Part shown: in pieces, positions 17,779 through 35,877 of the stretch
Layout of the letters: each line of letters opens with the position of its first letter
Position numbering within the stretch: position 1 is the stretch's first letter
From: Dehalococcoidia bacterium
GTDB lineage: Bacteria; Chloroflexota; Dehalococcoidia; GIF9; UBA5629
Length of the DNA: 49,481 nt
Assembly (NCBI GenBank): GCA_050014895.1
Contig: JBEKCL010000001.1
Coordinates: 1 to 49,481 of the forward strand
Direction of reading: 5' to 3'
Made by a program: the position numbers and the translations under genes
The notes under the pieces: generated by a model
Databases searched by the model: none
What the model was told of the DNA's origin: nothing
What the model saw: only the letters and a program-made list of their open reading frames with translations

Positions 17779-17798
17779 TATACAAATCCTATAATTAG

Positions 17799-18524: not shown

Positions 18525-18679
18525 CTTATCCCCTTACCAAATTTGCTTTTCCATACTTTTACCAACCAAATGCAAGCTCACTTTTAGCCCCATTGGGAGT
18601 TACCACTGTCGCCAGGTTAGTCGTGTTTTCAGTGGCTGCCGGTGATAGTTTTATTACTATCCGCATGTCCTCACCCGGG

Positions 18680-19057: not shown

Positions 19058-19075
19058 GATGCTCCAATACTTGCA

Positions 19076-19540: not shown

Positions 19541-20393
19541 GGTTGGACTCCTTCATCATCGAGAGGATCGACAGCAGGGCATTATCCTGGATCTGCTCAC
19601 CGCCCATCAGACTTTCAAGCTGGGCCAGCGTAGCAAGGTAATCCGTAGCAGTTGGGGACTGCGTACTGGTCGATTCATAACGTGATATACGTACCATCCT
19701 GATCAGAACGTCCTTAATATTCTCAGGAATCCGCCCCATGGCGGTTGACATTTCCACCAGCGCTTCAGTCCTGTCTTTTCCCAACTTGGCTGAAGCCTGG
19801 TCAACCCACTGGGTTAGACCGGCAATTACTACCAGGTCAGCGCGGGTGCCGCTCATTAAGGCATTTGGACTCTTTTTCTTACCGTTTTTCGGAGTCACCG
19901 GCTTTGTGTTGGCCAGAATGTCGTCTTCTTCGGACTCATCAGAATCATTCTTTCCTTTCTTCTTGCCCTTGCTCTTCTGTAGCTGCTCTTCTTCATCTTC
20001 CTCAGGCTCCGTCTCCGCTGACGGACCTGGCCCGTCAGAGGGACCTGCCCCCGGAAGGTCCATCGTCGGTCCCTGAAAACCTGGCTTCTCAGCTCCTGTG
20101 CCTGCAGATAGGTCGGTAAATGGATTGCCAAAGGAAAGACCGGCGTCCGGCATGTCTGCAGATGCGGAAACCGTATTGTCGCCGGCCAGGTCAAATTCCT
20201 CCGTTGGTACCTCAGGCTGTTTTTCCTTTTGTTCGGGGTTAGCTCCTGCGGGTGGCGTGCCCGTATTGTTGAAATTAAAGGGGTTCTGTATATTAAGGTA
20301 CTGTTCCCTGATATCGAGTAAGATCGTCTTGACCTCATTTTTCAGGATTTTCAGTTCCTCTTCCATCAGTTTTATTCTTTGTTCTTCATTCAT
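19533..20393 (-). CDS. Archaellum accessory protein, ArlD/E-like (alternatively ArlX-like): N-terminal coiled coil, long acidic/Pro-rich disordered linker, conserved C-terminal domain
   Basis: MNEEQRIKLMEEELKILKNEVKTILLDIREQY (coiled coil). C-terminal LTQWVDQASAKLGKDRTEALVEMSTAMGRIPENIKDVLIRMVRI resembles the FlaD/E domain pattern (W.d.l....G.....l.....g.I.e.....L). Positioned between the archaellins and the ArlF/G genes. It overlaps the next gene by 8 nt. Confidence 0.45.
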   Translation of the reverse strand: MNEEQRIKLMEEELKILKNEVKTILLDIREQYLNIQNPFNFNNTGTPPAGANPEQKEKQPEVPTEEFDLAGDNTVSASADMPDAGLSFGNPFTDLSAGTGAEKPGFQGPTMDLPGAGPSDGPGPSAETEPEEDEEEQLQKSKGKKKGKNDSDESEEDDILANTKPVTPKNGKKKSPNALMSGTRADLVVIAGLTQWVDQASAKLGKDRTEALVEMSTAMGRIPENIKDVLIRMVRISRYESTSTQSPTATDYLATLAQLESLMGGEQIQDNALLSILSMMKESNRG

Positions 20394-20412
20394 GTTATTA
20401 CCCCTTTTTCGG

Positions 20413-20442
20413 AGTGGGCATCCGTTTTAGCGGATGCCCACT
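20413..20442 (-). terminator. Perfect 12-bp stem-loop between archaellin 2 and the accessory genes (possible partial terminator or mRNA stabiliser)
   Basis: AGTGGGCATCCG (20413-20424) pairs with CGGATGCCCACT (20431-20442) around a 6-nt loop. There is no strong U-tract on the coding (minus) strand. Confidence 0.4.
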
Positions 20443-20491
20443 TTTCACATTACCACCTGTAAAGCAGTAGCTATTCTATGTATATTTATGC

Positions 20492-21106
20492 TTAGTGGAG
20501 ATCCATAACCTGTGCGATTGCCGGAGGCAGAGTCCTCTGGATGGTGATAGTGGAACCGAGGGATGGTTTTACCTGTACGCTAAACGTCAAGTTGGCCCCG
20601 AGATCTGAGTCCAGGCTTAAAGCTGAGACATCAATGGTGACTTCACACTGCTCACCGGTCTCAAGAAGGTTGTTGCCGTTATCATCACCGATGAAATGCG
20701 TTGACCATGCAATGTTGTTCAGGTAAGTATCAGAAGTAGTGAGGCTGATCACGCATTTGTTAGCACCTGCTGTGGCTCCGGAGTTGGGAGTCATGTCAAT
20801 CGGGTTTCCGGCTATAGCATTTTTGACGGTGAACTTGATCTTGTCAAGCTTGGTAGGGGGGTTGGTGGCATTATCGCCCAGGCCTATAACCGAGCCGGAA
20901 AGCTCCATGTTGCTCTTGGCTTCGTTCAAGCCAGCGTAGATGGTTTCCTTGGCCCTCTCAGCCGAGAAGAGGCCCGCACTCAGTACTGCATAGCCGAATA
21001 CGGCTGCAACTGTTACGAAGGCGATCAATATGATGGCGGTCTCAAGGCCGGTCATACCTTTTTCTTCCCTTCCCAGGTTGCGCATTGCTTTGAATAACTT
21101 AATCAT
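20492..21106 (-). CDS. arlB: Archaellin (archaeal flagellin, class III signal peptide), copy 2, 204 aa
   Basis: N-terminus MIKLFKAMRNLGREEKG/MTGLETAIILIAFVTVAAVFGYAVLSAGLFSAERAKE, the archaellin hydrophobic N-terminal helix. AGGAGG RBS. About 80% identical to copy 1. Confidence 0.85.
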   Translation of the reverse strand: MIKLFKAMRNLGREEKGMTGLETAIILIAFVTVAAVFGYAVLSAGLFSAERAKETIYAGLNEAKSNMELSGSVIGLGDNATNPPTKLDKIKFTVKNAIAGNPIDMTPNSGATAGANKCVISLTTSDTYLNNIAWSTHFIGDDNGNNLLETGEQCEVTIDVSALSLDSDLGANLTFSVQVKPSLGSTITIQRTLPPAIAQVMDLH

Positions 21107-21143
21107 TTGTTTCCTCCTTATTTGTCCTGAATTAACACTATAC

Positions 21144-21755
21144 TTAGTGCAGGTCCATCACTGGTTCGATAGCGGGAGGCAGTTGCCTCTGGATGGTGAT
21201 AGTGGAACCCAGGGACGGTTTTACCTGCAGGTTGAACGTATCATTGGCCCCAAGTGGAGTAGAGAGGGACATACCATCACCCAGGGACGTGAGATCAACA
21301 GTGATTTCACACTGCTCGCCGGTCTCAAGAAGGTGATTGCCGTTATCAGCGCCGATGAAAGCCGTTGTCCATTTAATATTGTTCAGGTAATCATTTGCTG
21401 TAGTGAGGCTGATCACGCATTTGTTGGTGGAGCCGGCGGAGCCGGTGCATTCGGTCAGGTCGATCGGATTTCCGGCAATGGCGTTCTTAACAGTGAATTT
21501 GATACTGGTAAGGTTGTCGCCTGTGCCCACGCCTATGACAGACCCCGAAAGTTCCATGTTGCTCTTGGCTTCGTTCAAGCCGGCATAGATGGTTTCCTTG
21601 GCCCTCTCAGCCGAGAAGAGTCCTGCACTCAGTACTGCATAGCCGAATACTGCTGCAACTGTTACAAAGGCGATCAATATGATGGCGGTCTCAAGGCCGG
21701 TCATACCTTTTTCGCCCCTGTGCAGATTCTGCATTGTCTTCATTAACTTAATCAT
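21144..21755 (-). CDS. arlB: Archaellin (archaeal flagellin, class III signal peptide), copy 1, 203 aa
   Basis: MIKLMKTMQNLHRGEKG/MTGLETAIILIAFVTVAAVFGYAVLSAGLFSAERAKE. The termini are near-identical to copy 2 and the middle diverges. Confidence 0.85.
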   Translation of the reverse strand: MIKLMKTMQNLHRGEKGMTGLETAIILIAFVTVAAVFGYAVLSAGLFSAERAKETIYAGLNEAKSNMELSGSVIGVGTGDNLTSIKFTVKNAIAGNPIDLTECTGSAGSTNKCVISLTTANDYLNNIKWTTAFIGADNGNHLLETGEQCEITVDLTSLGDGMSLSTPLGANDTFNLQVKPSLGSTITIQRQLPPAIEPVMDLH

Positions 21756-21937: not shown

Positions 21938-22402
21938 CTATAATTTAACAAGTGTAAAATTGCTCCCCTGCTGAAATAAGACCATGCGCCAGAGATGTAC
22001 AATGCGGATTGCGCCAATAAGATCATTGCGTCCAACATCACCGGAAAGAAAACCGGATGCCCCATTTTCGATCGCCGGTACAAGGAAGTTCTGCTGGTCA
22101 TTAAGAACAATAATTCCCACCAGTGGTGAACATTCCTTTATGTATGAAATTACTTTAGTGCTGTCAGTTCCCCGCAGGCTGCCATCCAGGATAACAATAT
22201 CCGGGGTGATCTTCTCCACCAGCTCCAATGCCTCTTTCCCGTTGCGGGCCTCAGCTACCACTTTTATACTTTCATCGCCGGCGAGCATATGGCGGATGCC
22301 TTCTCGCATGGCCTCACTGCTGTCAACCACCAATACACGAATCGCGTCTTCAACAAGGCTGCCTGTTGACTCTGTAAATACGCTCGAAGACCGTGTAATC
22401 AT
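21938..22402 (-). CDS. Stand-alone receiver (REC) domain protein with degenerate active-site residues and no output domain (154 aa)
   Basis: IRVLVVDSSEAM (DD becomes DS), DIVILDGSL (acceptor Asp retained), IIVLNDQ (T/S becomes N), GASGFLSGD (conserved Lys becomes Ser). It is paralogous to the REC domain of the NarL-type regulator but ends without an HTH. Confidence 0.6.
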   Translation of the reverse strand: MITRSSSVFTESTGSLVEDAIRVLVVDSSEAMREGIRHMLAGDESIKVVAEARNGKEALELVEKITPDIVILDGSLRGTDSTKVISYIKECSPLVGIIVLNDQQNFLVPAIENGASGFLSGDVGRNDLIGAIRIVHLWRMVLFQQGSNFTLVKL

Positions 22403-22627: not shown

Positions 22628-23272
22628 TCAGAGCATGTTTCTGCGGTAGGCCTCGGCCACTGCCTGTGTGCGGTCCACTGCTTCCAACTTGTTGAAAATA
22701 GTATTGGTTTCCCTTTTAACGGTCGCTTCGCTTACACACAACTTGCCCGCTATTTCCCTGTTCGTTATGCCGGCGGCAACCAATCTGAGTATGTCAAGCT
22801 GCCTGGGCGTCAACAGCGAATTACGGCTCAATTGGGCTACGTTGCCGAACTGCGTAAACAGGGTACGCGTGACCGAAGGAGCAAAGGGGGATTGACCTTC
22901 AAAGGCCAATTTGATTGACCTTGATAACTCTTCACGTCCAATATCCTTCAACAAATACCCCACCGCACCGGCTTCCGCCGCCTGGGCAAGGTACTTATCT
23001 TCGTAGACAGTCAGGATAATAATATTCGCCTTACACTCTTTGGCCTTTAACTGCCGGGTCGCCTCAATACCACCCATGCCGGGCATCCGCACATCCATTA
23101 ATATAATGTCAGGTCCCCATTCATCTGCTTTAACAAGGGCATCTTCGCCGGATGTAGCTTCTCCAATCACCTCGATCTCATCGTCTAACTCCAGCATCCG
23201 CCTGAGTCCCTCGCGCACCAGTTGCTGATCGTCTACCAGCATTACTCTAATCGATTTATTATTATTACTCAT
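22628..23272 (-). CDS. NarL/FixJ (LuxR-type HTH) response regulator. An alternative GTG start lies at 23290.
   Basis: IRVMLVDDQQLVREGL, ILMDVRMPGMGG, IIILTVYED, GAVGYLLKD. C-terminal LTPRQLDILRLVAAGITNREIAGKLCVSEATVKRETNTIFNKL. The ATG at 23272 overlaps the kinase stop by 8 nt. Confidence 0.85.
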   Translation of the reverse strand: MSNNNKSIRVMLVDDQQLVREGLRRMLELDDEIEVIGEATSGEDALVKADEWGPDIILMDVRMPGMGGIEATRQLKAKECKANIIILTVYEDKYLAQAAEAGAVGYLLKDIGREELSRSIKLAFEGQSPFAPSVTRTLFTQFGNVAQLSRNSLLTPRQLDILRLVAAGITNREIAGKLCVSEATVKRETNTIFNKLEAVDRTQAVAEAYRRNML

Positions 23273-24866
23273 TTCCCGCCATAATCGCACTAGTCATCGT
23301 ATTCTCACTGGACCTTGATATAGGCAACGTCACAAATATTTTCGTGCCATTGCCAGGGGCAGTATCTACATCCATTCTGCCCCCCAGCATTTCAGCCCTT
23401 TCTCTCATAGTAATCAAACCTATACTGCTTTTCGCCACTTTGTCGCTTAAAGCTCCCGCCAGGTCAAAACCCTGACCGTCATCGATAACTTCAACGCTTG
23501 CATATTCTAAATCAAACTTTAGAACAAGGTCAACGTGGGACGCTTTGGCATGTTTCCTTATATTATTCATTGCCTCTAGTATTATACGGTAAATACTGAC
23601 TTCTTGTATTAATGATAGGCTGTTCATGCTGCCCACAATGCGGAAATCGCACCTGACCCCGTTTTCTCTGTTGAAACCCTCTACCTGCCTCCGCAGCGCT
23701 TCAATCAACCCAAGCTCAGCCAGCGCAATGGGATGAAGATCGAGAATTATACGTCTGAGTTCCTTGACACTCTGATTAAGTATATTGTTAGTGCGTTTTA
23801 TCTCATTGAGCGTATCTTCCCGCCGTTCCGATGTGAGATACGCTTCACACAATTGCATACCATAAGAGGCGCTTACCAGCCATTGGGCAAGTCCATCATG
23901 AAGCTCTGATGAGATCCTTCTACGTTCATCCTCCTGGGCCGTCAAAGATTTCTTTAAAAACCTCTCCAGGTTCCTCTGCTGCATTTTTACACTGTCGAAC
24001 AATGTCGCATTTTCAATAGCTATGGCAGCCTGGCCGGCCAGGATATACAAAAGCTCAAGATCACCCTCTGTAAACGGGGTTCGTGAAGTAATTTTGCTGC
24101 AATTGATTACACCAATTACCTTTTTCTTTAATAAAAGAGGTACACACAACGAGGAAACCACTTCGGGGTTTCCAGTGAGCTTGATCTGCTTTGCCTCACC
24201 ATTAAGTAATATGGCGCGCCCTGTTTCAACGACTGACCAGGCAATGCTATCATCGGATATTTCTTCACCTTTACCTATCAGCTCACCGGGCAGGCCGATC
24301 GCAGATTTAATAATTAATTGTTGCGATAATTCGTCCATCAGCATCAGAGATACCCTGTCAGCCCTTGTTTCGATGCACACAAGATTCACGATCCGGTTAA
24401 AAATTTTATCTGCATCGAGTTCAGACACCAGGGATTTATTCAACTCGAACAAAGGCAATAGAGTTTTCAGCCGCATGTTTTCTTTGGCCAACCGGCTTCG
24501 CTGCAACACCTCTTCCACTATTTCTTTGAGATTCTTATGGTTCACGGGTTTTTCAAGTATTGCCTGTGCCCCTGCCTGGAATGCTTTAATAAGCAATTCA
24601 GGAGAGTCATTTTGAGTCATCACGATGACACCGATTTCAGGGCTTAAAAAACGTGCCCTGTGAAGTACCTCAAGGGCATTACTTTCGCGGATGGATAAAT
24701 TAAAAATCAGAACGTCAACGTTTTTCTTTTGAATAATAGATAAGGCTTCCGCACAGGAGTCGGTTTTGACGACAGCGAAACCTTCACCGGATAAAATATT
24801 CTTAATAGTCGATGCAGTGGAACGGTCATCATCAACTAAAAGAATATTTTCCTTATACATTACCAA
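23265..24866 (-). CDS. Hybrid sensor: REC, GAF, HisKA_3 (NarX-type) histidine kinase, HATPase_c (533 aa, cytoplasmic)
   Basis: ILLVDDDRSTA...LIFNLSI (REC-like). GAF-like segment DRVSLMLMDE...LCVPLLLKKKVIGVINC. H-box RRRISSELHDGLAQWL. HATPase segment EAMNNIRKHAKA...DDGQGFD. Confidence 0.85.
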   Translation of the reverse strand: MVMYKENILLVDDDRSTASTIKNILSGEGFAVVKTDSCAEALSIIQKKNVDVLIFNLSIRESNALEVLHRARFLSPEIGVIVMTQNDSPELLIKAFQAGAQAILEKPVNHKNLKEIVEEVLQRSRLAKENMRLKTLLPLFELNKSLVSELDADKIFNRIVNLVCIETRADRVSLMLMDELSQQLIIKSAIGLPGELIGKGEEISDDSIAWSVVETGRAILLNGEAKQIKLTGNPEVVSSLCVPLLLKKKVIGVINCSKITSRTPFTEGDLELLYILAGQAAIAIENATLFDSVKMQQRNLERFLKKSLTAQEDERRRISSELHDGLAQWLVSASYGMQLCEAYLTSERREDTLNEIKRTNNILNQSVKELRRIILDLHPIALAELGLIEALRRQVEGFNRENGVRCDFRIVGSMNSLSLIQEVSIYRIILEAMNNIRKHAKASHVDLVLKFDLEYASVEVIDDGQGFDLAGALSDKVAKSSIGLITMRERAEMLGGRMDVDTAPGNGTKIFVTLPISRSSENTMTSAIMAGNE

Positions 24867-24917: not shown

Positions 24918-25487
24918 TTATTTTTTCTTAGGCCACCACCCCCACCAGTTCTCCTGTCCACATTTTGTGCATTTCACCTTTATTGCCACTACGCCTACCG
25001 ACCCGCATGAGCTGCAATTAAAGATTTTATTAACGTTGTATCCGGCCGTGCCCCTCAATCCTTCGGATATGACTTCTACCTGGCTGCTTACGTTCTGTAT
25101 TTGTTGTATGGCCGCCTTCAGTGCAGCAGGGTTAGCCTGAGCAGCGGGGCTGCCGGCACTATTTTCCAATTTGGACACCATAAGTTCCAGGCGGGAGAGC
25201 CGGTTTACTATTTCGCCCACCTGTTCATGCAGAGACTTAATATCACCTGCTGCAATGCATTCATCAGCACTGTGTCCGCTGTGCGCCACTGGTTCAGGGG
25301 CACCTTTAGCCTGTATACTTGCAACACTGACTTTCTGAACATTAGGTAAAGGCGGCGTAGCCGAAACTGTTTTTACCGGAGCACTATTGCCGGGTACGAT
25401 TTTATGTGCAGGCGCCGGCTTGGCGGCAGTTTTGCCCACCATGGCGTCAATGTCTTCTTGCGATAACATTTTACTTGTATCGTCCAT
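24918..25487 (-). CDS. Uncharacterised 189-aa protein: FliM-like LSQxxIDA N-terminal peptide, Pro/Ala-rich linker, coiled-coil-like segment, C-terminal CxxC-x14-CxxC zinc ribbon
   Basis: MDDTSKMLSQEDIDAMVGK..., IKSLHEQVGEIVNRLSRLELMVSKLENS, ...FNCSSCGSVGVVAIKVKCTKCGQENWWGWWPKKK. Short gaps to the flanking genes on the same strand. Confidence 0.6.
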   Translation of the reverse strand: MDDTSKMLSQEDIDAMVGKTAAKPAPAHKIVPGNSAPVKTVSATPPLPNVQKVSVASIQAKGAPEPVAHSGHSADECIAAGDIKSLHEQVGEIVNRLSRLELMVSKLENSAGSPAAQANPAALKAAIQQIQNVSSQVEVISEGLRGTAGYNVNKIFNCSSCGSVGVVAIKVKCTKCGQENWWGWWPKKK

Positions 25488-25519: not shown

Positions 25520-26704
25520 TCAATAATCACTTAGTTCGCTTATCAGAACGTTCTTCTTTCCGTTCTTTGCAAGATCCAGGTCACGTTTACCGTCTTTTTT
25601 CTCATGCCTTTGGTCACATTCAAGTTCGCAGCCTGTACATATATCCAAACCTTCCTCAGCTATCCCCGGTGTGGCGCCGCTTATTATTCTTATCTTGGGA
25701 CTCCTGAGGCACTCAGGGTTAGATTTTATAACTATGCCTGTGCGACCGTCATTGAGTTTTACCATGGTACCCGCAGGATAAATAGGGACAATACGTGTAA
25801 ATGTCCTGACCAGTTCGGGGTCAAAAAGCTCCCCGCTATATGCAATGACATACTCTATCGCATCCTGAGAAGAAACAATACTGTGTTCGATAGCAAACGC
25901 CGGGAGGAATTCCTCACGGTGCGGTCTCTTAGATGCGAGGGCAAAACAAACATCTGTCATTCCCAGAATCCTTGCAGCCCGGCTTATACCGTCTTTTCTC
26001 AGTCCGAAAGGATAGCCGCTTCCATCCCACCTTTCGTGGTGCTGCAATACCATGTTTGCCGCTTCAGGACCAACCTCAGTGTATCGGGCGAGTATCTGCG
26101 AACTGTAAACCGGGTGCCTTTGAACAGCCTTCAGTTCCGCATCATTTAGAAATCCCGGCTTATCGAGGATACCCTGCGGCAATAATACATAACCCATATT
26201 TTGAAACAGCGCTGCCATGCCAAGTTGCTTTATTTCTTTTTTACCCATGCAGACTTCTTTACCCATCAACATGGAAAGTGATGCAACTTTGATAGGGTGC
26301 ACATAATTATAGTCTCTCAATGAGAAGCAACCAGCGATGGAGGGATCGCCCTTGTTTTCCGAGATCACAGTTTCCAGCAACTCGTCCATAAGATTATTCA
26401 CAAGGACAAGATCAATCGGCTGCTGGCTCCTGCTCGTAAGTAATGCCCGGCATTCTATCATAACTCTGCGCAATGCTTTGGAAATAGCTCCCTCCAATTC
26501 CGGGGGCACCATCGGGGGAACAGATATATCTTCGGTCTTCTTATTGACGACGTATAATTCCCCTACGCCGATATCCTCTATCTGCGCGATGTTTCTGGGA
26601 TCCAGTACGATGCCATTTTGTAGCACTACATCGCCCCAGTTATCGTAAATCGGGCTGGCCAATTCCATTCCGGGCCTCGCAAAGATTGCTGAAATGCGCT
26701 GCAT
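25520..26704 (-). CDS. HD-GYP-family protein with a degenerate HD dyad (HD becomes QN), 394 aa
   Basis: AALFQNMGYVLLP in place of LLHDIGK. HHERWDGSGYPFG is retained. MTDVCFALASKRPHR. Paralog of the next gene. Confidence 0.8.
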   Translation of the reverse strand: MQRISAIFARPGMELASPIYDNWGDVVLQNGIVLDPRNIAQIEDIGVGELYVVNKKTEDISVPPMVPPELEGAISKALRRVMIECRALLTSRSQQPIDLVLVNNLMDELLETVISENKGDPSIAGCFSLRDYNYVHPIKVASLSMLMGKEVCMGKKEIKQLGMAALFQNMGYVLLPQGILDKPGFLNDAELKAVQRHPVYSSQILARYTEVGPEAANMVLQHHERWDGSGYPFGLRKDGISRAARILGMTDVCFALASKRPHREEFLPAFAIEHSIVSSQDAIEYVIAYSGELFDPELVRTFTRIVPIYPAGTMVKLNDGRTGIVIKSNPECLRSPKIRIISGATPGIAEEGLDICTGCELECDQRHEKKDGKRDLDLAKNGKKNVLISELSDY

Positions 26705-26741
26705 TTAATTTAATATCCCTTATTTCACCCTGTCTGATTAA

Positions 26742-27896
26742 TTAATATTCCATTACCTGCGTAATTAGCTTCCTCTGGTGTTCAGCATCCGCCAAATTAA
26801 TATCAACGGGTTTATCAATGTCTCTCATTTCGCTATCATAGCAAATACGTACCTTGGGCCTTGAAAAGTACCCGCAGTTGGAGTTCGATACTATGCCAAC
26901 TTCACCCGTATTGAGTTTGACCATAATTCCAGATGGGTAGGTAGGCAACTCCTTGGTGAATATTTTTACCAGGTCCGCATCGAACAGCTCGCCGCTGTAC
27001 GCAACGATGAACTCCATCGCCTGGTGCGGACGGAGAAAATCGGCGTCATCCAAATCGCCGGAAAAAGCATTTACGAATTCCTGCGCTTCTTTGGGTAGTA
27101 TGCACCCCCTGTGCGGACGGTTGGATACAAGCGCCACTACGCTGTCGGTAATACCCAGGATGCGGGCTCCGTGACAAATACTCCTTGCCCTTACACCATT
27201 GGGATAACCGCTGCCATTCCAGCGCTCATGATGCTGCTTAATAATCAGCGCAGTTTCCTCGGAGACCTGCCCATATCTTTTAACAATCTCAGATCCATAA
27301 GCAGGATGTTTCTGCACTACCTGTACTTCGGCGTCCGTCAACGGACCTTCCTTATCAACTATTCCCTGTGGCAGAGCAGCGTAGCCTATATTCTGAAGCA
27401 GTGCTGCCATTCCCAGGTTTATCAACTCCGTTTGTCCCAACCCCGCAGCTTTCCCCATAAGCAACGTGAGGCTGGTAACCTTCACTGGATGAACAAAATC
27501 ATAATCTTTAATTGAATGGCATCCAGCTACAACCGGCTCCCCCATGGCTACGGGGAACAACTGTTGTACCATTTCAAAAATCCCCTGCCGCAGAGGTGCT
27601 AGATCCATCATCTGGGCCTTCCCGGAGCCTACTATGTGCTGAGCCTTTTGCAAAGCTAGTTTTAGCGATAATGCAATGGACCCTTCGAGTTCAGGCGTTA
27701 TCAATGGCCATGCAGTCACATCATCCACCCGCTTATCCATGATAAAAAGTTCGCCCACTCCTACCTCTTCAAGGTTGGCAACCTGCACAGCTGACAACTT
27801 TGTGCCCTCCTTTAGTAACAATTTCCCAAAACAATCGTATAAGGCACGGCCCAACATCATAGTCGGTTTTGCGTATTTAGCGGAAATTCTTCTCAT
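26742..27896 (-). CDS. HD-GYP-family protein with a degenerate HD dyad (HD becomes QN), 384 aa
   Basis: AALLQNIGYAALP in place of LLHDIGK. HHERWNGSGYPNG is retained. ITDSVVALVSNRPHR. Confidence 0.8.
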   Translation of the reverse strand: MRRISAKYAKPTMMLGRALYDCFGKLLLKEGTKLSAVQVANLEEVGVGELFIMDKRVDDVTAWPLITPELEGSIALSLKLALQKAQHIVGSGKAQMMDLAPLRQGIFEMVQQLFPVAMGEPVVAGCHSIKDYDFVHPVKVTSLTLLMGKAAGLGQTELINLGMAALLQNIGYAALPQGIVDKEGPLTDAEVQVVQKHPAYGSEIVKRYGQVSEETALIIKQHHERWNGSGYPNGVRARSICHGARILGITDSVVALVSNRPHRGCILPKEAQEFVNAFSGDLDDADFLRPHQAMEFIVAYSGELFDADLVKIFTKELPTYPSGIMVKLNTGEVGIVSNSNCGYFSRPKVRICYDSEMRDIDKPVDINLADAEHQRKLITQVMEY

Positions 27897-27929: not shown

Positions 27930-28739
27930 TTAATGCCTTGCTGATAACGCTGCGGAGCTTTTCGAGTAGAAACAGGTCCCTAGTTTGGAATAACCGATTT
28001 TGACAGAGTTAACCATGAACTCTGTTGCGCCAACAAAAAGGATTCCATTATCCTTAAGCGAATCAAAAAACCGCTGGTTTAACTTCTCTTTTGCCTCTTC
28101 AGTAAAATAAATAGTCACATTGCGGCAGACAATTAAATTGAACCCCTTTTCAAAGGGATCGGCCAGAAGGTTATGCTTTTTGAAAACGACCTTCTCCTGG
28201 ATATCTTTTACCACCCAATAATCACCATTTTGCGCCGTAAAATATTTAGCCACCAGGTGCTTCGGCAAATTCTTGAGCATGTCTTCTCTAAAAGGACCTC
28301 CCGCCCTTGCTTTTGCCAGGCTCAACTCATCCATGTCAGTCCCTAATATCCGTAAATTAACCTTCTTCGAACTGTCCATCACCAGCATGGCGATAGTATA
28401 AGCCTCAGCGCCATTTGAACAACCGGCGCTCCAAATATTGAGATGACCGCCATCTTCCATTAACTTGGGCAGAATAGTACTTTGCAACTCTTTAAATGCC
28501 CAGGCATCGCGGAAAAATTCTGTTACATTTATCGTTAGAAAATCACAGAGTTTTCTCAGGCCCGGTTCATCTTGCTCAATGGTGCGGCAATAGGTCACGA
28601 CGTCCTTTGCGGAGGAGTTTTCAATAAATGCCGATAGCCTGCGCCTCATCTGCTGGCTTTTATAATGCTCCAGGTCTATACCGGTAATGTTAAACAATTT
28701 CTTTTTTAGAAATAGATATTCCTGATCTGTCATCGTCAT
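27930..28739 (-). CDS. cheR: Chemotaxis protein methyltransferase CheR
   Basis: TEFFRD, IWSAGCSNGAEAYTIAMLV, IVCRNVTIYF. It overlaps cheB by 4 nt (ATGA). Confidence 0.9.
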   Translation of the reverse strand: MTMTDQEYLFLKKKLFNITGIDLEHYKSQQMRRRLSAFIENSSAKDVVTYCRTIEQDEPGLRKLCDFLTINVTEFFRDAWAFKELQSTILPKLMEDGGHLNIWSAGCSNGAEAYTIAMLVMDSSKKVNLRILGTDMDELSLAKARAGGPFREDMLKNLPKHLVAKYFTAQNGDYWVVKDIQEKVVFKKHNLLADPFEKGFNLIVCRNVTIYFTEEAKEKLNQRFFDSLKDNGILFVGATEFMVNSVKIGYSKLGTCFYSKSSAALSARH

Positions 28740-29857
28740 ATACTCACCAAAGATGTGCTAGATTTTGAACAGACATTAGCTATTTCAGCAACAATCCTGT
28801 TCAATGGCGCTACTTTGTCGACCAACCCTGCTTCAGCTACGCTCCGCGGCATACCGTAAACAATACATGTGGACTCATCCTCTGCTAATATCATGCCGCC
28901 ACCTGCTTTTATCATAGCGGCGCCCTGGGTCCCATCCGAACCCATACCGGTAAGTATTACACCTACACAGCGTGAACCGTATGCTTTTGCAGCAGCCTCC
29001 ATGGTTACATCCACAGCAGGCCGTAATCCGCCACAACGTGGTTTGTCCTGGTTAAGCTCTATCTGCCCACTTAAATTCATCACCATGTGAAAACCACCGG
29101 CTGCCAGTAACGCCTGCCCGTTTGCCACTACATCCCCAGCTTCAGCCTCTTTCACCTTTATCTGGCTCAGTTCATTGAGCCTGTCAGCAATGGACTTTGT
29201 AAATTTGGGCGGCATATGTTGCACAATGAGGAACGCGGCGTCAATGTCCCCCGGTATATTTGGAACCACTTCATATAGAGCGCGGGGTCCGCCGGTAGAG
29301 GTCCCGATGATGACAACGTGGTTTAATTTACTGCGTTTAACTGAAGGCGTCTCCCGCTTTTTTGTCATGCTTCTATGGAGGTCCTGCGATATCCTGCGCA
29401 GTCTTGTAGTCACCTTGGCGACATCTATCTTGGCTGCCTGCTTTATTTTAAAAATCAGTTCATCATCAGATTCATCCGAACCAGCCGGATTAATCAACTG
29501 CGGCTTCAGGAAAAAATCCACGGCGCCAATTTCCAGCGCCTTCACAGTAACATCAGCCCCTTCCGCAGTGAGGTTGCTCAGCATCACCACCGGTGTTGGA
29601 CAATGAGACATAATACGTTCCAGGCAAGAGATACCATCCATCTTAGGCATCTCTATATCAAGGGTTACGACATCCGGTTTTAGCGATTCTATCTTTGCAA
29701 GAGCATCCAGGCCATCCCGGGCTACACCGGCTATCTCTATTTCCGAATCAGCTGATATGTGCCGGGAAATCATCAGGCGGGCAAATGCCGAATCATCGAC
29801 TACTAATACCCTGACCCGCTTTTCTGGCATATTCATTTCGTTGCGCTCAGTTGACAT
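28736..29857 (-). CDS. cheB: Chemotaxis response regulator protein-glutamate methylesterase CheB
   Basis: REC segment (VLVVDDSAFARLM...VVTLDIEMPKMDG) followed by a methylesterase segment (VVIIGTSTGGPRAL, IVQHMP, GMGSDG). Confidence 0.9.
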   Translation of the reverse strand: MSTERNEMNMPEKRVRVLVVDDSAFARLMISRHISADSEIEIAGVARDGLDALAKIESLKPDVVTLDIEMPKMDGISCLERIMSHCPTPVVMLSNLTAEGADVTVKALEIGAVDFFLKPQLINPAGSDESDDELIFKIKQAAKIDVAKVTTRLRRISQDLHRSMTKKRETPSVKRSKLNHVVIIGTSTGGPRALYEVVPNIPGDIDAAFLIVQHMPPKFTKSIADRLNELSQIKVKEAEAGDVVANGQALLAAGGFHMVMNLSGQIELNQDKPRCGGLRPAVDVTMEAAAKAYGSRCVGVILTGMGSDGTQGAAMIKAGGGMILAEDESTCIVYGMPRSVAEAGLVDKVAPLNRIVAEIANVCSKSSTSLVSI

Positions 29858-29868
29858 GGTTCTTCACC

Positions 29869-30225
29869 TTAGCTGATCATTTTCTTTACTGCGGCAAGGA
29901 CACGCTCTGCATCGAATGGTTTAACAACAAAATCCCTGGCCCCGGTTTTCAATGCTTCCATAACCATGGATTGCTGACCCATTGCCGTGACCATGGCAAC
30001 CCTTGCCCCCGGATCCATTTTGATTAATTCTTTTAGCGTGGAAAGACCATCCATGTTTGGCATGGTTATATCCAGCAAAACACCATCGGGTTTGTATTCC
30101 TTGTATTTCACAATTGCTTCGGCGCCATCTGCTGCCTCAGCAACTTCGAAACCATTATCAGATAACAGCTTGGTGCATCTCATTCGCATGAAAGCTGCAT
30201 CGTCTACTACAAGTATTTTCGCCAA
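29869..30225 (-). CDS. cheY: Chemotaxis response regulator CheY (118 aa, TTG start)
   Basis: MAKILVVDDAAFMR...VLLDITMPNMDG...VAMVTAMG...DFVVKPF. GGAGG lies 8 nt upstream of the TTG. Confidence 0.85.
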   Translation of the reverse strand: MAKILVVDDAAFMRMRCTKLLSDNGFEVAEAADGAEAIVKYKEYKPDGVLLDITMPNMDGLSTLKELIKMDPGARVAMVTAMGQQSMVMEALKTGARDFVVKPFDAERVLAAVKKMIS

Positions 30226-30423
30226 TTTATCCCTCCTTATTAATGTCTTATCTCTTTAATGCCCCTCTTTTCAAAGGGTCCTTTTTAACCAACTTACGCC
30301 GTACTTAATTTTCACAACCGCAGCATCTTTCTACAAGATACGACGGTTCAATTTTCGTGAGCCAACTGGCTATGCTTAGCTTTTTTCAACTGCAATTCGG
30401 TTTAATGACTTTCGGCATCTAAT

Positions 30424-32547
30424 CTATTTTTCCTTTAACTTATATTTAGTAACGATTTCTTTGAATTCCCGGGCCATGCGGGATATACCGGCCCCGGAAG
30501 AGACTACTTGCTGCATCTGGGCACTGATCTCTTCGGCGGCAGCAGATACCTCCTCGGTAGCTGCACTGTTCTGTTCAGCTACACCCGCGACATCTTCCAC
30601 CGACTTGGATACAGTATTCGCCGTTGCAGACATTTGCTCGGTCGCCGCCGTGTTCTCCTCAACTATCGCACTGATGTTTTCACTAAGCTTAACCATCTCC
30701 GTGCTCATAGCTCCCAACTGTTGCGCCGCCGCCGATATCTGCTCCACCTGGTCATTCATATCAGCCGACTGCTTGAGTATCTCGCCCAGGGACTCGCCCG
30801 CTTTATGGGCCACATCATATCCCCCGGCTATTTGCTCCGTCCCTTTCTCCATAGCCTGTATAGTTTGGTCTACACCTGCCTGTATTCCGCTTATCAATTC
30901 CGCTATTTCTTTCGTAGAAGCTGCAGATCGCTCCGCCAGTTTCCTCACTTCATCCGCCACTACCGCAAAACCTCTACCCTGCTCTCCAGCTCTTGCAGCC
31001 TCGATTGCCGCATTGAGCGCCAGCAGGTTAGTCTGGTCCGCAATACCATTTATCGTAGCTACTATCTTCCCTATTTCCCTTGACCTGCTGCCCAAACCAT
31101 GTACTTTCTCCGACGCAATATCTATCGTGCCCTTGATCTCTTCCATGCCATTGATCGTTTTCTGCACCATTCCTGCGCCACTGCGCGCTGTCTCCATTGC
31201 AGCCCTGGCACTCCCAGTAGCCTTCCCGGTATTAACGGAAACCTGTGTTATTGCAGTGGACACCTGTCCAACTACGTTCACATTTTTTTCTATTATTCCG
31301 GCCTGCTCCTGCGCCCCTCTGGCTATCTGGCTAATAGCCTTGTTTAACTGTTCCATGGCCTTCATGGTATCCTGCATTGATGTCGCTTGTTCAGCAGCAC
31401 CCTTAGCCACCTGCTGGCTGGCATCTGCTATCTGGTGCGTGGCCTGCTCAGCCTGATGAGACGCCTGCTCAAGCTGCTCGCCCGAATCAAGTAACTCCGT
31501 CGAAACTTGCCTGAGCTTACGCACTACCGCGACCTGGTTGCCTGCTGACCGGTTGGTAACTTCTTTCAACCGTAACAGCTCGCCCTTATAATCCCCGTCC
31601 ACTTTAATAGTAAGATCATTTTCGGCCTGCATATTGAGCACGGCGGAAATCTCATTTAAAGGCGTTATCACTGTGTCCAGCATCGAATTGATCCCGCTTA
31701 TAATGTCCGCCCAGCCGCCTTTGAATTTTGAAGCATCCCCTCTCAAATCCAGCTTGCCATCCCGGGCAGCAGCGATAAGCGAGTCTACTTCATTCATTAA
31801 GCCAGTCAGACTGTCTGTACAGGCATTAAAGCTGTCAGTGAATTTTTGCCAATCACCCTTACTGACCTCCGTTGACTTTGTTAAGTTCCTTTCCCCATGC
31901 TCAATCTGTTCAAAGTTCTTTCTAATGCCTTCGATCAAGGAAAACATTGCGTCCAGCAGGATGTTTACCCCTTTTCCAACCCTTCTTAAACTGCCGTCAT
32001 ACCTTTTGTAATTAAGTCGGCTGGATAATTTACCCTCGCCTATAGCGACCAAGATGCTGTTAACTTCGCCGACAAATTCAATCTGTTTGCTGGAATCAGT
32101 AAAATATTCCATTGCGCCAACTATGTCGCCCTGCTCGTTTTTAAGGGGTATCACCGAGCATTGCACCGGCAACACTCCGGAAGGCGTCGTTATTGAAGTT
32201 TCAATCATAAAATTACAGTTTTCCCGCATGGCCCGGCTGGTCAGACAGGTCTCAGGGTTACATTTATCTATCTTCAATAACTCATAACATTTACGTCCTA
32301 TGCACTCTTCGCGAGTCTTGCCGGTGAACCTTGCGCCGGCAGCATTAACATAACTGATATTGTGATCAAGATCGATGGTCACTACGGCGACAGGAAGCAT
32401 GTCAAATGTCTTAGAACCCTGCTTGTCCAGGTCGTTATATGGTTTCCGGAACCATGATTGCCCTCCCGGGCTTCTACCGGTCTTTGCAGTTACCACCTGT
32501 TTATTCCCATTGCCTTTCTCCCTTTTCGTGTCCAGTATATTAATCAT
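30424..32547 (-). CDS. Soluble methyl-accepting chemotaxis protein with an N-terminal Cys-rich PAS domain (707 aa)
   Basis: No TM helix. PAS-like segment [37 protein letters not shown]. Signalling hairpin [40 protein letters not shown]. The C-terminal ~400 aa are paralogous to the MCP at 36909-39539. Confidence 0.9.
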
Positions 32548-32596
32548 TTACCTCTCCGTTGAAACCTTCATATCTTGTTTAAATAGTCAATACTTA

Positions 32597-33109
32597 TCAC
32601 ATTTCAGCTATCGGGCCGGCGGTAGTCCTCACCCTGGTAATACCGGTTTCAATATGTAACCACATTGACCTGCCCAATTTGCCCAACAGGTCTTCAGCTT
32701 TTAACTCCAGATGGTATTCAGCGAAGGCAATCTTAATAGCGGTAACGTTGCGGTCACCGATATCAAGGATGCTCTTGGCCGGCACATTGCTTATGATCTT
32801 GGCACCCCCCGCTATCTTCAATATAATCCTCTTTTTTATTGCGCCCTTCTTCTCCATTTCTTTCACAAGGAAAGGTAAGGCCGAGTTTGCGAATTTCGCC
32901 GGGGCCCTTTCACAATCAGCTTCGTTGCCTTGCGGCAATACAATATGCGCCATTGCACCCACGCGGGAAACCGGGTCATAGGCACTCACGCCAATGCACG
33001 AGCCTAAACCCAGGCAGGCCAGTACCACGTTGGGATCATTACTAAAATGTATTTCACCCAGTCCTACAGCCACCATTACCTCATTTTTGAGGACTGGAGT
33101 CGTAGTCAT
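32597..33109 (-). CDS. cheD: Chemoreceptor glutamine deamidase CheD
   Basis: LGLGSCIGVSAYDPVSRVGAMAHIVLP...KIAGGAKI...IGDRNV. It overlaps cheC by 4 nt. Confidence 0.85.
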   Translation of the reverse strand: MTTTPVLKNEVMVAVGLGEIHFSNDPNVVLACLGLGSCIGVSAYDPVSRVGAMAHIVLPQGNEADCERAPAKFANSALPFLVKEMEKKGAIKKRIILKIAGGAKIISNVPAKSILDIGDRNVTAIKIAFAEYHLELKAEDLLGKLGRSMWLHIETGITRVRTTAGPIAEM

Positions 33110-33723
33110 TTCCTTCCCCTGCTATTAACAAGTGGCAACTGCATGAAACTTGCGTTAGGCATAATCAGGAAAGTCCCCTCAACAGTACGGTCAGAAACGC
33201 CAAAGGACGTCTCAGCTATAAACACGTCATCGCGCTCTGCAAGTATCTCGGCAAGGGCAATATCTAAAATTGCTCCGGCCATATCCAGCAGGACAATCGG
33301 TGGGGACGGATTGAGAAAAACGCCAAGCTCATCTGCCACAGCGTTAAGGAAGAAGGTGCCGGTAATATTACCCATTTCCCCCAGGGCAGATTGGGACATC
33401 TCATCCAGGCTACTGGTCGTGCCCATCGGGTTCCCCATGAGCATATCCAGTACTTTATAGGCAAACTCCGGTTGGTGCGCCAACAGTATGTGCCCATGAC
33501 TGGCACCTGAAAAAGTGATGTATACTCCTATGACCATGTGCTCCGGGCCGCCCAATATATATGGCATTTCTTTGGCGGGGACCTTGCGGATATTTATGGA
33601 ATTTATCTGGAATTCCCTGCCGACCATCTGGGATAGTCCATTGATTGAATTGGTCATACCTTTTTTCATAAGGTCTTCCCATATCAGCATTTCCTCTTGC
33701 ACAGAGACCTCGTTAACAGCCAT
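33106..33723 (-). CDS. cheC: CheC-family CheY-P phosphatase
   Basis: Duplicated CheC-like segments, including MSQSALGEMGNITGTFFLNAVA. Located between cheA and cheD. Confidence 0.75.
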   Translation of the reverse strand: MAVNEVSVQEEMLIWEDLMKKGMTNSINGLSQMVGREFQINSINIRKVPAKEMPYILGGPEHMVIGVYITFSGASHGHILLAHQPEFAYKVLDMLMGNPMGTTSSLDEMSQSALGEMGNITGTFFLNAVADELGVFLNPSPPIVLLDMAGAILDIALAEILAERDDVFIAETSFGVSDRTVEGTFLIMPNASFMQLPLVNSRGRK

Positions 33724-33744
33724 TCCGTTTATTTCCTCCTGAAA

Positions 33745-35877
33745 TTAAAATCTAGCCGTATTTACAGCCAAACCGTGTTTGTTACTAGTTTGCCCCTGTT
33801 GCGCGAACATTCGGATCAGCGTAGGTATATCCAAAATAAGGGCCACTTCTCCATTACCAAGAATCGTTGCCCCTGCAATGCCTTGTAGCTCACCGAAATA
33901 TTTACCTAGCGACTTAATAACAAATTCCATCTGCTCCCTGAGATCATCTACCACGATGCCGGCCACCCTGTCGCCCGCTTTGACAACCAGCACATAATCA
34001 TCTGCCTTGTCCGATGACTCCAGGCCGGTGCCAAGAACTTTGCTCATGCGCATGAGAGGGACAACCATATCGCGAAGCCTCATGACCTCCCTCTTTTGAA
34101 CAGTTTGTATTTCGCTAGTCTTGACCTTTATAGTCTCCATGACAGAAACCAGCGGGACAATAAAGCTTGATCCTGATACAGTTACTACCAACCCCTGGAA
34201 TACAGCTACAGTAAGAGGCAATTTGATAATGAAAGTCGTACCTTGATTGAGCTTTGTCTCCAGCGCTACATTACCATTCAGCCGTTCAATATTGGTCCTG
34301 ACAATATCAAGGCCGACCCCTCTCCCTGAAACGTCTGTGGTTTTTTCAGCAGTTGACATGCCGGGGGAGAAAATCAGGTCGATAGCTTCCTGATCAGATA
34401 ATTTGCCGGCAGCTTCCGCCGACAGGAAACCCTTTCTTATGGCCGAGTCCCTCACCCGCTTCGGGTCAATTCCCTTGCCGTCGTCTTCAAGTTTGATAAC
34501 TATATGCCCTTCTTCCTGGTATGCTGAAAGTCTAACTAATGCCTTCTCAGGTTTGCCTTTTGCCCTTCGCTCTTCAGGAGTTTCAATGCCATGGTCCACG
34601 GCATTCCTGAGTAAATGGACCAGCGGATCATGTATTTTTTCAATAATCGTCCTATCAAGCTCTGTATTTTCACCCTTGATGACAAAATCCAGGTTCTTCT
34701 GCAATTTTTGCGCTGTGTCACGCACAAGCCTGGGAAATTTGCTGAAAACCAGGCTGACCGGGACCATCCGGACTTTCATAATATCCTGATAAAGCTCATT
34801 AATGACCTTTACAATATGATTGGAGGTATCTCCGAGATCGCCAACAAGCTCATCATCAGGGTATTTCCCCTCGAGCAGTTTGCCGACCTGGCTTATTCTG
34901 GAGCGGTCAATTACCAGTTCTTCTACCATATTCATCAGGTTGTCAAGAACCGTTACATCTACACGGATGCTCTGCATGACTTCCGCCTTAGCATTACCAT
35001 CGGCAGGCTTGACATCCGGCCTGGTATCATTACCGGGGACATCCTGCGGTACTGATGTTTTACGCTCTTCCCCGCCAGATGATTTTAAAAGCCTTTCTGC
35101 TTCGCTTGTTCCGTAGCCGGCTGTTATCACCTTCTCAATATCGGAGATAAGCATGAGAGTTTGCTCTATCTCATCAGTCTTTCGGCTGCAACATACAATA
35201 GCATTGAACTCCGGAGTTACCTTTTCCTGCTCAATTTCCTTTAAACCCGGAACAGATGCGATCAACTCACCCATGGCAGCTAGGTCATTGTGAATCTGGA
35301 GGCTTCTGACAGCGAGCCACTCGCTTTTTTTATCAATAAATACTTTCACTACATAGACATTCAACCCATTTTTCTGGGCCTTGGCGATCTTACTTGCGGC
35401 ATTTTTATTAAGGGTGATCAGCTTCCCTGTCTTGCCTGCGCCATTATTCGGGGTCCCTGCTTCTTCCGTTTTCTCGCAGTTACCCGCTTCCGCTGACTCA
35501 TTCAGACGGGAGACTATTGACGGGATATCCACATCACTCTCGCGCCGGGTAATGATCTCTCCCTTGAGTGTTTTCAGAGCGTCGAGGCTAAAAAGCAGGG
35601 CGTCTATAATTTTGGAATTTACGTTAATTTTATGGTTGCGCAACTTGTCCAGCAGGCTTTCCATTGCATGCGTTACTTCCGCCATCCGCTCATGGCCCAG
35701 CATAGCCGAAGAGCCCTTCAACGTGTGAGCCGCGCGGAAAATTTCCTGCAGCAATTCCTGGTTATTTGCCTCGTTTTCGAGTTTAATAATGTCTTCATCT
35801 AGAAGCTGAATATGTTCCTCAGCTTCTTCCATGAATACTTTTAGTTCTTCAGGGCTGATTTCACAGCTAATGATCAT
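33745..35877 (-). CDS. cheA: Chemotaxis histidine kinase CheA
   Basis: Hpt segment FRAAHTLKGSSAMLG. HATPase segments HLLRNAVDHGIE, DDGKGID, GRGVGLD. C-terminal CheW-like domain. Confidence 0.95.
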   Translation of the reverse strand: MIISCEISPEELKVFMEEAEEHIQLLDEDIIKLENEANNQELLQEIFRAAHTLKGSSAMLGHERMAEVTHAMESLLDKLRNHKINVNSKIIDALLFSLDALKTLKGEIITRRESDVDIPSIVSRLNESAEAGNCEKTEEAGTPNNGAGKTGKLITLNKNAASKIAKAQKNGLNVYVVKVFIDKKSEWLAVRSLQIHNDLAAMGELIASVPGLKEIEQEKVTPEFNAIVCCSRKTDEIEQTLMLISDIEKVITAGYGTSEAERLLKSSGGEERKTSVPQDVPGNDTRPDVKPADGNAKAEVMQSIRVDVTVLDNLMNMVEELVIDRSRISQVGKLLEGKYPDDELVGDLGDTSNHIVKVINELYQDIMKVRMVPVSLVFSKFPRLVRDTAQKLQKNLDFVIKGENTELDRTIIEKIHDPLVHLLRNAVDHGIETPEERRAKGKPEKALVRLSAYQEEGHIVIKLEDDGKGIDPKRVRDSAIRKGFLSAEAAGKLSDQEAIDLIFSPGMSTAEKTTDVSGRGVGLDIVRTNIERLNGNVALETKLNQGTTFIIKLPLTVAVFQGLVVTVSGSSFIVPLVSVMETIKVKTSEIQTVQKREVMRLRDMVVPLMRMSKVLGTGLESSDKADDYVLVVKAGDRVAGIVVDDLREQMEFVIKSLGKYFGELQGIAGATILGNGEVALILDIPTLIRMFAQQGQTSNKHGLAVNTARF

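Follow-up and report, generated by a model that had tools for sequence, protein, structure and literature searches.

The locus analyzed here raises the question of what two HD-GYP proteins that have lost the HD dyad may contribute to chemotaxis in a bacterium with an archaellum. The window, which is the whole stretch of 49,481 nucleotides analyzed (contig JBEKCL010000001.1 of a Dehalococcoidia bacterium, assembly GCA_050014895.1), encodes two such proteins as tandem paralogs, A and B, next to the chemotaxis gene cheR. A preliminary description made from the sequence alone had proposed for both a non-catalytic role, such as nucleotide receptor, sensor or scaffold, which could couple a cyclic-dinucleotide signal to chemotaxis or archaellum output. 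After comparison with solved structures, homologs and related contigs, we tentatively favor the view, to which we give slightly less than an even chance, that A and B are non-hydrolytic, ligand-sensing pseudo-phosphodiesterases in the chemotaxis output. The open reading frames (ORFs) and motifs in question are as follows.

26742-27896, minus strand: ORF of paralog A (384 aa), with an N-terminal beta/helical domain, an HD-GYP-fold domain and a small C-terminal beta domain.
27381-27401, minus strand: LLQNIGY of A, the degenerate HDxGK motif (Q168, N169, Y172), placed by alignment to PDB sequences and by MAFFT.
25520-26704, minus strand: ORF of paralog B (394 aa), with the architecture of A and the reading QN-MG-Y.
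26189-26209, minus strand: LFQNMGY of B, the degenerate HDxGK motif, placed by MAFFT alignment.
10130-11974, minus strand: a canonical PAS-HD-GYP protein (GALLHDIGKAAIP), encoded at the distal end of the archaellum locus and used as internal control.

Both paralogs scored above the gathering score of the Pfam model HD_5 (PF13487), which covers HD-GYP (6e-26 for A and 8e-21 for B), and they are 45% identical to each other over about 350 residues. No Response_reg match was returned by the Pfam scan of A and B, and the N-terminus in the model of A is a beta/helical domain instead. The motifs reported in the preliminary description were recovered in the translated ORFs: HHERWNGSGYP, HHERWDGSGYP, VHPVKV and VHPIKV are each present, LLQNIGY and LFQNMGY occupy the place of the canonical motif, and the PAS-HD-GYP protein is canonical in the MAFFT alignment. 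Metal-ligand mapping on solved HD-GYP proteins set the QN pair on H221 and D222 of PmGH. In a phmmer search against all PDB sequences, A matched 4mcw (PmGH; the chain numbering is offset by 6) at 1.4e-17 with the QN pair in the columns of these two residues, and the pair also fell in the HD columns of V-cGAP3 (5z7c) and PA4781 (4r8z). A MAFFT alignment that included the PAS-HD-GYP protein of the window gave the same register of QN and HD, and the agreement of both methods excludes the possibility that the QN position is not homologous to the HD dyad. The lysine of HDxGK is replaced as well, by tyrosine in both A and B, a change that had escaped the preliminary description. For A, the AlphaFold2 model computed from 53 homologs reached a predicted local distance difference test score (pLDDT) of 90.4 and a predicted template modeling score (pTM) of 0.89. 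Foldseek matched this model with probability 1.00 to 3tm8, 4mcw, 9rbz and 4r8z, and HD-GYP structures account for all of its best fold matches in the PDB (Bd1817, PmGH, DvhD and PA4781).

In PmGH, the metal centre is formed by eight ligands (E185, H189, H221, D222, H250, H276, H277 and D305), D183, K225 and D308 are further essential residues, and Y285, I294, R314 and K317 contact the substrate (PMC4159591). Each of the substitutions H189A, H221A, D222A, K225A and D308A abolishes its phosphodiesterase activity (PMC4159591). The equivalent positions were read from an alignment of A, B and 51 homologs (n=53), and the family counts below refer to it.

PmGH H221: Q168 in A; in the family Q in 30, E in 13, M in 6, K in 3 and S in 1 of 53.
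PmGH D222: N169 in A; N in 51 and D in 2 of 53.
PmGH K225: Y172 in A; Y in 50/53, with Lys in 40/40 canonical relatives.
PmGH H189: H136 in A, the first His; H in 39, Q in 10 and L in 4 of 53.
PmGH D308: V254 in A; Y, F, V or C in the family.
PmGH E185: Y132 in A; Y in the family (the Y/F, presumed binuclear, subfamily).
PmGH H250: H197 in A; invariant, 53/53.
PmGH H276 and H277: H222 and H223 in A; invariant, 53/53.
PmGH D305: D251 in A; invariant, 53/53.
PmGH Y285 (the Tyr of GYP): Y231 in A; Y in 49/53.
PmGH I294: I240 in A; at least 90% in the family.
PmGH R314: R260 in A; 51/53.
PmGH K317: R263 in A; 51/53.

A and B retain the ligand equivalents H136, H197, H222, H223 and D251 together with GSGYP. 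The residues H197, H222, H223, Y231 and D251 were also invariant in complete family genes recovered independently from metagenomes, and the glutamic acid of HHE (E224) is invariant or nearly so in the family. The position of Q168 varies among Q, E, M, K, S, R and A across wider homologs. The features that set the clade apart from canonical proteins are N169 in place of D, Y172 in place of K, P137 in place of S, G125 in place of D, A164 in place of G and P318 in place of A, and in the N-terminal domain D21 and E49 are conserved in the clade only. The lysine K235 of 4MCW is called c-di-GMP-binding (cyclic di-GMP) in the census of Galperin and Chou. Its equivalent is lysine in 40/40 canonical relatives and is kept as K182 in A and B; the clade as a whole has K in 32/72 and E in 21/72, and the Glu forms cluster in single-copy EN/QN lineages.

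As read from these columns, the HD-proximal half of the metal centre is dismantled, with strong constraint on the GYP-proximal sub-site and on much of the pocket. On the same reading, the constraint sits on N169 and Y172, not on the varying Q168. Canonical phosphodiesterase chemistry in A and B is very unlikely, because the H221A, D222A, K225A, H189A and D308A forms of PmGH are each inactive. The proposed non-catalytic role can be maintained as a sensible default, since the positions of H221, D222 and K225, each essential in PmGH, are all replaced in both proteins. The proteins should not simply be called dead, as the conservation of H197, H222, H223, D251 and the GYP tyrosine suggests that one metal sub-site and the pocket are kept. 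The first histidine, which the preliminary description had listed among the retained residues, is indeed present in A and B and is not conserved family-wide. Sequence proxies of nucleotide binding are mixed, as R260, R263, Y231 and I240 are conserved, and the position of K225 is tyrosine and that of K235 is relaxed. Binding of a cyclic dinucleotide by A and B is plausible on these grounds, and ligand binding with the retained single metal site alone has precedent. Public databases label the clade proteins as phosphohydrolases or c-di-GMP phosphodiesterases; the latter annotation is probably wrong.

The degenerate motif is a property of a whole clade. Among the best 120 database homologs, in which dyads were read by regular expression, 70 have QN, 23 EN, 7 MN and 2 KD, single sequences have MD, KN and SN, and 15 could not be read. 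The HD dyad was found in none of the 120, and the resolved ones nearly all read G-Y, not G-K. A profile search of 1.84 billion representative proteins gave 128,782 HD-GYP-like matches. Of the roughly 37 top-ranking representatives, at E below about 1e-88, most were read as non-HD, nearly all of these with tyrosine after the glycine; five are HD forms without the lysine, and seven dyads could not be read. Canonical HDxGK proteins with the same three-domain layout start at about E = 1e-84. A genome-collection scan was made with the family alignment and the generic pattern HHERW[DN]GxG, and the matches listed served as outgroup only. Among them were canonical HD-GYP proteins only, at 25-39% identity, and the closest reference-genome relatives among the matches listed (Desulfosporosinus, Halanaerobiaceae and Actinomycetes) all have HDxGK, with 25-30% identity along the whole length.

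An unbootstrapped neighbor-joining tree unites all non-HD sequences in one clade, and the duplication that gave A and B lies inside it. The clade comprises the A-type (384 aa), the B-type (393-394 aa), a type of 410 aa and several single-copy lineages of 358-363 aa, and the B-type orthologs form a clade of their own. All members with names come from metagenome-assembled genomes of Dehalococcoidia or Dehalococcoidales. The clade signature can be written as Q/E/M/K/S, then N or D, then x-G-Y, and on the topology of this tree the histidine and the lysine were lost once, before the duplication of A and B. Convergent origin of QN in the two paralogs was rejected for the same reason. The argument of the preliminary description that the same substitution in two diverged paralogs speaks for selection has to be corrected, as the two cases are not independent. 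Selection is visible in another measure. Between the window and the related contig L001, nonsynonymous divergence (dN) is 0.097 for A, 0.171 for B and 0.198 for cheR; synonymous divergence (dS) is saturated in the comparisons with L001 and with L090, and only dN relative to cheR can be quoted. By this measure both genes are under purifying selection. Pseudogenes were likewise rejected, as both genes are full-length, conserved in many metagenomes and not above cheR in dN. One database sequence, P0031, is a frameshift artefact by appearance.

The chemotaxis link proposed for A and B proved stronger than the preliminary description could know. The two genes that flank the pair in the window are given below.

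27930-28739, minus strand: cheR (Pfam CheR 2.6e-53), directly upstream of A.
24918-25487, minus strand: a 189-aa ORF directly after B, named here the partner, with no Pfam or NCBIfam match.

A starts 33 bp after the cheR stop, in agreement with the preliminary description. The wider context was sampled in the contigs of eight diverse clade members with 42-85% identity to A. A family gene stands directly after cheR in 8/8 contigs (gaps 1-33 bp), and the order cheR, family gene, partner gene is kept in 8/8 (gaps 0-33 bp), with the family and partner genes overlapping by one base in L004. Archaellum genes lie within 10 kb in 6/8 contigs, and none was found by Pfam within 10 kb in L004; the recurrence next to chemotaxis and archaellum genes, on which a survey had been suggested, is hence common in this sample. 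The window has the F1-type set of CheA, CheW, CheY, CheB, CheR, CheC and CheD with chemoreceptors at 27930-39773, and the F1 set was also found in L001, L005, L006, L087, L088, L089 and L090. L090 has a second cheR copy directly before the family/partner pair. Tandem paralogs occur only in the lineage of the window (L001 and L090) among the contigs examined, and the others have a single copy. An independent seed was provided by a metagenome scan on the partner motif E[GN]WWGWW alone, which gave 64 loci, 34 of them with at least 1.3 kb upstream. A clade member was found directly upstream on the same strand in 31/34, and the dyads in the partner-seeded loci are 32 QN-Y, 5 EN-Y, 3 KD-Y, 2 MN-Y and 1 KD-S. 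In L148, what stands after cheR is a family gene reduced to a truncated remnant, and L150 differs again.

In the partner of the window, the N-terminus reads MLSQEDIDAMV and is followed by a disordered Pro/Ala-rich linker, by two long helices, by a zinc ribbon of the form CxxC...CxxC and by the tail WWGWWPKKK. The N-terminal consensus in its family is [ML][ST]Q-x-[ED]-I-D-[AS]-[LM], and distant members read VLSQAEIDALL or VLSQAEIDALF. Across 43 diverse homologs L8, Q10 and D14 of this motif are invariant and I13 is conserved in at least 90%. WWGWWP is conserved in the partner family, the basic residues after it are found in the lineage of the window, and the partner copy in L004 is without the second CxxC and the WWGWWP tail. 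A profile search collected 149 proteins, nearly all unnamed or hypothetical, and the few labelled members are from Chloroflexi or Dehalococcoidia. The AlphaFold2 model of the partner has a pLDDT of 55, which allows only the secondary-structure topology to be read, and a helix is predicted at residues 10-18. FliM binds phosphorylated CheY (CheY-P) through an EIDALL motif (PMC9126983). The LSQxEIDA[LM] sequence of the partner matches this motif and looks like a candidate CheY-P-binding peptide. Three longer members of the HD-GYP family (P0236, P0249 and P0251; 473-522 aa; dyads RN, KD and AD) have C-terminal low-complexity extensions of 110-160 aa with Arg-rich basic tails. They were considered as fusions to the partner and rejected, as the extensions contain no zinc-ribbon protein.

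Degenerate HD-GYP proteins with regulatory roles are already known, and their comparison with A and B is instructive. PA2572 of Pseudomonas aeruginosa, a YN-GYP protein, has no detectable c-di-GMP-degrading activity and partners with the chemoreceptor-like PA2573 (PMC3411652). It resembles A and B in the replaced dyad with asparagine at the aspartate position (YN versus QN), in the retained GYP and in the tie to a chemoreceptor. It differs in being a response regulator that interacts through its N-terminal REC domain, whereas A and B have no REC, carry another N-terminal domain and an extra C-terminal beta domain, are encoded inside a complete che operon and belong to another phylum. DvhD of Desulfovibrio vulgaris (PDB 9RBZ and 9RC0), in which HD is changed to SQ, binds c-di-GMP without metal and without hydrolysis (PMC13090378). 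Its degenerate HD-GYP domain has a significant sequence and fold match to A. DvhD lost the HH pair (MN) and kept the HDxGK lysine, and in A and B the reverse is found, with HH kept and the lysine changed to tyrosine. Furthermore, the process under the control of DvhD, a transmembrane dCache-PAS receptor, is adhesin proteolysis and not chemotaxis. HnoD, which also lost the HH pair, and ECA3548 are further inactive HD-GYP regulators, and more inactive HD-GYP proteins are predicted by the same census (Galperin and Chou). The canonical stand-alone proteins of Desulfosporosinus and Halanaerobiaceae and PmGH (4MCW), at about 355-380 aa, are near A and B in length and share with them the N-terminal domain, the core and the C-terminal YP-G-V-L-G-G-V beta domain. 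Canonical relatives and the clade have 24 invariant positions in common, including H197, HHE, GYP and D251. The canonical relatives differ by HDxGK, by serine after the first histidine and by lysine at the K235 position throughout, and are about 25-30% identical to A.

For the partner, the closest likeness is the EIDALL peptide of FliM/FliY, to which MLSQEDIDAMV is similar; the distant form VLSQAEIDALL is essentially the FliM_N consensus. Its coiled coil, zinc ribbon and WWGWWP tail are unlike FliM/FliY, and archaellum genes, not flagellar ones, are near the cluster. The likeness to CheF, the adaptor between CheY-P and the archaeal ArlCDE switch complex (PMC9126983), is functional only and hypothetical: a gene set between che and arl genes that may link CheY-P to the archaellum. 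CheF consists of two PH-like domains and binds CheY-P by a helical C-terminal tail (PMC9126983), and has no sequence or fold relation to A, B or the partner. Unlike in CheF, the candidate CheY-binding element would here lie on a small protein of its own, as an N-terminal peptide of FliM type.

These results can be joined in the following model. A and B would descend from a stand-alone HD-GYP phosphodiesterase, and their Dehalococcoidia-specific clade, which lost the HD histidine and the HDxGK lysine once, would have settled as a constant accessory gene in the F1-type chemosensory operon. Probably as a dimer, A and B would sense a small phosphorylated ligand, likeliest a cyclic or linear dinucleotide, through the retained pocket without degrading it, and would relay the signal by way of the FliM-like partner to the chemotaxis output. 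Swimming by the archaellum, a horizontally acquired machine, may then depend both on CheY-P and on the state of the second messenger. We infer the loss of hydrolysis, the ligand binding, the physical interaction with the partner and the effect on archaellum switching, and likewise the step that is targeted; the FliM-like peptide points to the CheY-P output branch, and the position after cheR leaves a CheR-directed role. A ligand-sensing adaptor is the likeliest function, because the constraint on the pocket is hard to explain otherwise, and it is supported by the degenerate domain of DvhD, a proven c-di-GMP receptor. The canonical PAS-HD-GYP protein at the end of the supercluster also hints at a dinucleotide signal in the organism.

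Several observations weigh against this model. No diguanylate cyclase or other dinucleotide cyclase was found within the window. The phosphate-contacting K225 is tyrosine in nearly all members and the K235 equivalent is relaxed across the clade, changes which argue against canonical c-di-GMP binding across the whole family. The three invariant histidines with one aspartate would also fit an enzyme that is still active. In L089 the family member lies in a che cluster without archaellum genes within 8 kb, and no fusion between the family domain and the partner was found among the longer family members. Moreover, the partner stands without an adjacent family gene in L140 (3364-4465) and in the shorter contig L147 (7-1118). 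In both, cheY directly precedes it, with a product 53-61% identical to CheY of the window, and an inverted archaellum locus follows it. Judged from these two exceptions, the partner is bound no less closely to CheY and the archaellum than to the degenerate HD-GYP protein.

The changes at K225 and K235, the latter often to glutamic acid, are also what a nucleotide-independent scaffold might display, in which the HD-GYP fold would bridge CheR, CheY or the partner to the archaellum motor or the receptor array and the metal would be structural. The tight or overlapping spacing with the partner gene and the clade-restricted conservation of D21 and E49 agree with such a role, and RpfG-family proteins that are inactive have been described to work by protein-protein interactions (Galperin and Chou census). 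We nevertheless hold a scaffold to be somewhat unlikely. Pure scaffolds usually let pocket residues drift, and HnoD and DvhD have lost the HH pair too, whereas in the present family H197, H222, H223, E224, D251, Y231, I240, R260 and R263 are fixed or almost fixed, with overall identity at about 40-45%, which suggests that a ligand or metal site is still in use. That invariance, of three histidines, one aspartate and the glutamic acid of HHE, could in turn belong to an active hydrolase with a remodelled metal centre, either mononuclear or binuclear with the use of Asn and Glu/Gln, working locally at the chemosensory array on a cyclic or linear dinucleotide or another phosphoester. Some members have EN or keep the aspartate (KD, MD, QD), the metal nuclearity that HD-GYP enzymes tolerate varies, with two of the eight PmGH ligands missing from RpfG (PMC4159591), and the public annotation is phosphodiesterase. 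This explanation is distinctly unlikely, as a change at any one of H221, D222 or K225 kills PmGH and all three are changed in A and B. The position of H221 is hypervariable, unlike a metal ligand, the equivalents of D308 and H189 are eroded, and the YN-GYP protein PA2572 has no detectable activity.

There is finally a slim chance that the target is not the step from CheY to the motor and that the family proteins bind CheR and tune receptor methylation by a second messenger. An analogy exists in Pseudomonas aeruginosa, where the c-di-GMP-bound PilZ protein MapZ inhibits CheR1. The close spacing after cheR in all eight contigs would suit this possibility, as would L089, where cheR, the family gene and the partner are kept without nearby archaellum genes, and the second cheR copy before the pair in L090. 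Gene order alone cannot separate it from the ligand-sensing adaptor in the output branch, and the equally strong linkage to a protein with a CheY-binding-like motif points to that branch.

The remaining genes from the che cluster to the archaellum locus in the window are as follows.

28736-29857, minus strand: cheB.
29869-30225, minus strand: cheY (118 aa).
30424-39773, minus strand: the remainder of the F1-type cluster, with a methyl-accepting chemotaxis protein (MCP), CheW, CheA, CheC/X, CheD and a PAS-MCP.
23265-24866, minus strand: a REC-GAF-HisKA_3 kinase.
22628-23290, minus strand: a LuxR-type response regulator.
21938-22402, minus strand: a stand-alone REC protein.
14472-21755, minus strand: the archaellum locus, with two archaellins, a 286-aa ORF, ArlG-like, ArlF-like, ArlH, ArlI and ArlJ.

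After cheR, the order is A, B, the partner ORF, the trio of kinase, LuxR-type regulator and REC protein, the archaellum locus, two ORFs and the PAS-HD-GYP gene. A terminator scan found no convincing intergenic terminator from cheR to the LuxR-type regulator, the first good one being at 22606-22583, which is compatible with co-transcription. The closest PDB sequences of CheY are those of Pyrococcus horikoshii (7.9e-39) and Thermotoga maritima (5.5e-38), and this equal closeness assigns it to neither an archaeal nor a bacterial type. The trio is also present in L001 and L090 and suggests a dedicated transcriptional control of the archaellins. The 286-aa ORF (19533-20393, minus strand), which the archaellins and the ArlG/ArlF-like genes enclose, is without match in Pfam and NCBIfam. 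Euryarchaeal loci carry arlCDE where the window has this ORF, which could encode a divergent switch-complex protein; ORFs without match occupy the same position in L001 (303 aa), L005 (261 aa), L087 (281 aa) and L090 (298 aa). From arlJ to the PAS-HD-GYP gene (11994-14449, minus strand) two ORFs without family, of 226 aa and 587 aa, were found, and the longer one matches a PGS-family Ig-like domain (NF058592) only weakly, its 28 bits lying below the cut-off of 45. The window has one ArlI-like ATPase gene (15988-17778), and tandem pairs of ArlI-like (T2SSE) genes are present in L005 (14504-18001), L087 (14233-17727), L088 (15455-18947), L140 (6854-10438) and L147 (3491-6784). The arlI and arlJ ORFs as called overlap by 50 nt (15988-16037); the called arlJ start is probably too far upstream, because ArlJ as matched by NCBIfam starts only at residue 30. 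Beside the che-archaellum supercluster, at 40054-40872 on the minus strand, lies the gene of a prepilin-type peptidase that has the bacterial A24 N-terminal domain (PF06750 and PF01478), a hint that processing of the archaellins may fall to a bacterial PilD-type enzyme. Plus-strand genes flank the supercluster at 1472-4585 and 44827-48456 and encode a Type ISP restriction-modification enzyme (N6_Mtase and Type_ISP_C) and a 1209-aa SNF2-family helicase with NOV_C.

The locus of the window matches the bacterial archaellum recently described in Chloroflexota (PMC12488501). CheF is reported to be absent from Chloroflexota in two recent papers, one of which postulates another component that couples CheY to the archaellum (PMC12488501; bioRxiv 10.64898/2026.05.11.724246). 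In Pfam and NCBIfam scans, no CheF-like match was found in A, B, the partner or the family-less ORFs of the locus in the window, and no ArlCDE match in the partner or the family-less archaellum-locus ORFs. The idea that the HD-GYP/partner pair is the missing bacterial substitute of CheF can be considered here, though we regard it as unlikely. CheY-P would dock on the FliM-like peptide, the pseudo-phosphodiesterase would gate or tune the coupling by a nucleotide second messenger, and the complex would be brought to the membrane-proximal archaellum motor by the Trp-rich basic tail and zinc ribbon of the partner. A literature search that joined 'HD-GYP' and 'archaellum' returned only an unrelated review, and the papers on the archaellum and che systems of Chloroflexota have no mention of HD-GYP or c-di-GMP. 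Inactive HD-GYP proteins are already an established category and the general idea is not new. As far as the searchable literature shows, new are the clade, whose metal centre is asymmetrically eroded, its fixed position within the F1 che operon of archaellated Dehalococcoidia and the FliM-like zinc-ribbon partner.

Inactive HD-GYP proteins form a recognised small class, and every case characterised so far has brought to light a regulatory connection that was new. The present clade is unlike the known cases in keeping one metal sub-site intact with the other dismantled, and in being a fixed component of a chemotaxis operon. Its hosts swim by an archaellum without CheF, the only known link from CheY to the archaellum, and the HD-GYP and partner genes are concrete candidates for such a link that can be tested as purified proteins, a route of importance, since the majority of these organisms are uncultured. 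If the pair does substitute for CheF, a new switch interface would put a horizontally acquired archaeal motor under both chemotactic and second-messenger control. The interest of the family comes chiefly from its conserved operon context and its partner, which make the chemotactic control of a bacterial archaellum testable.

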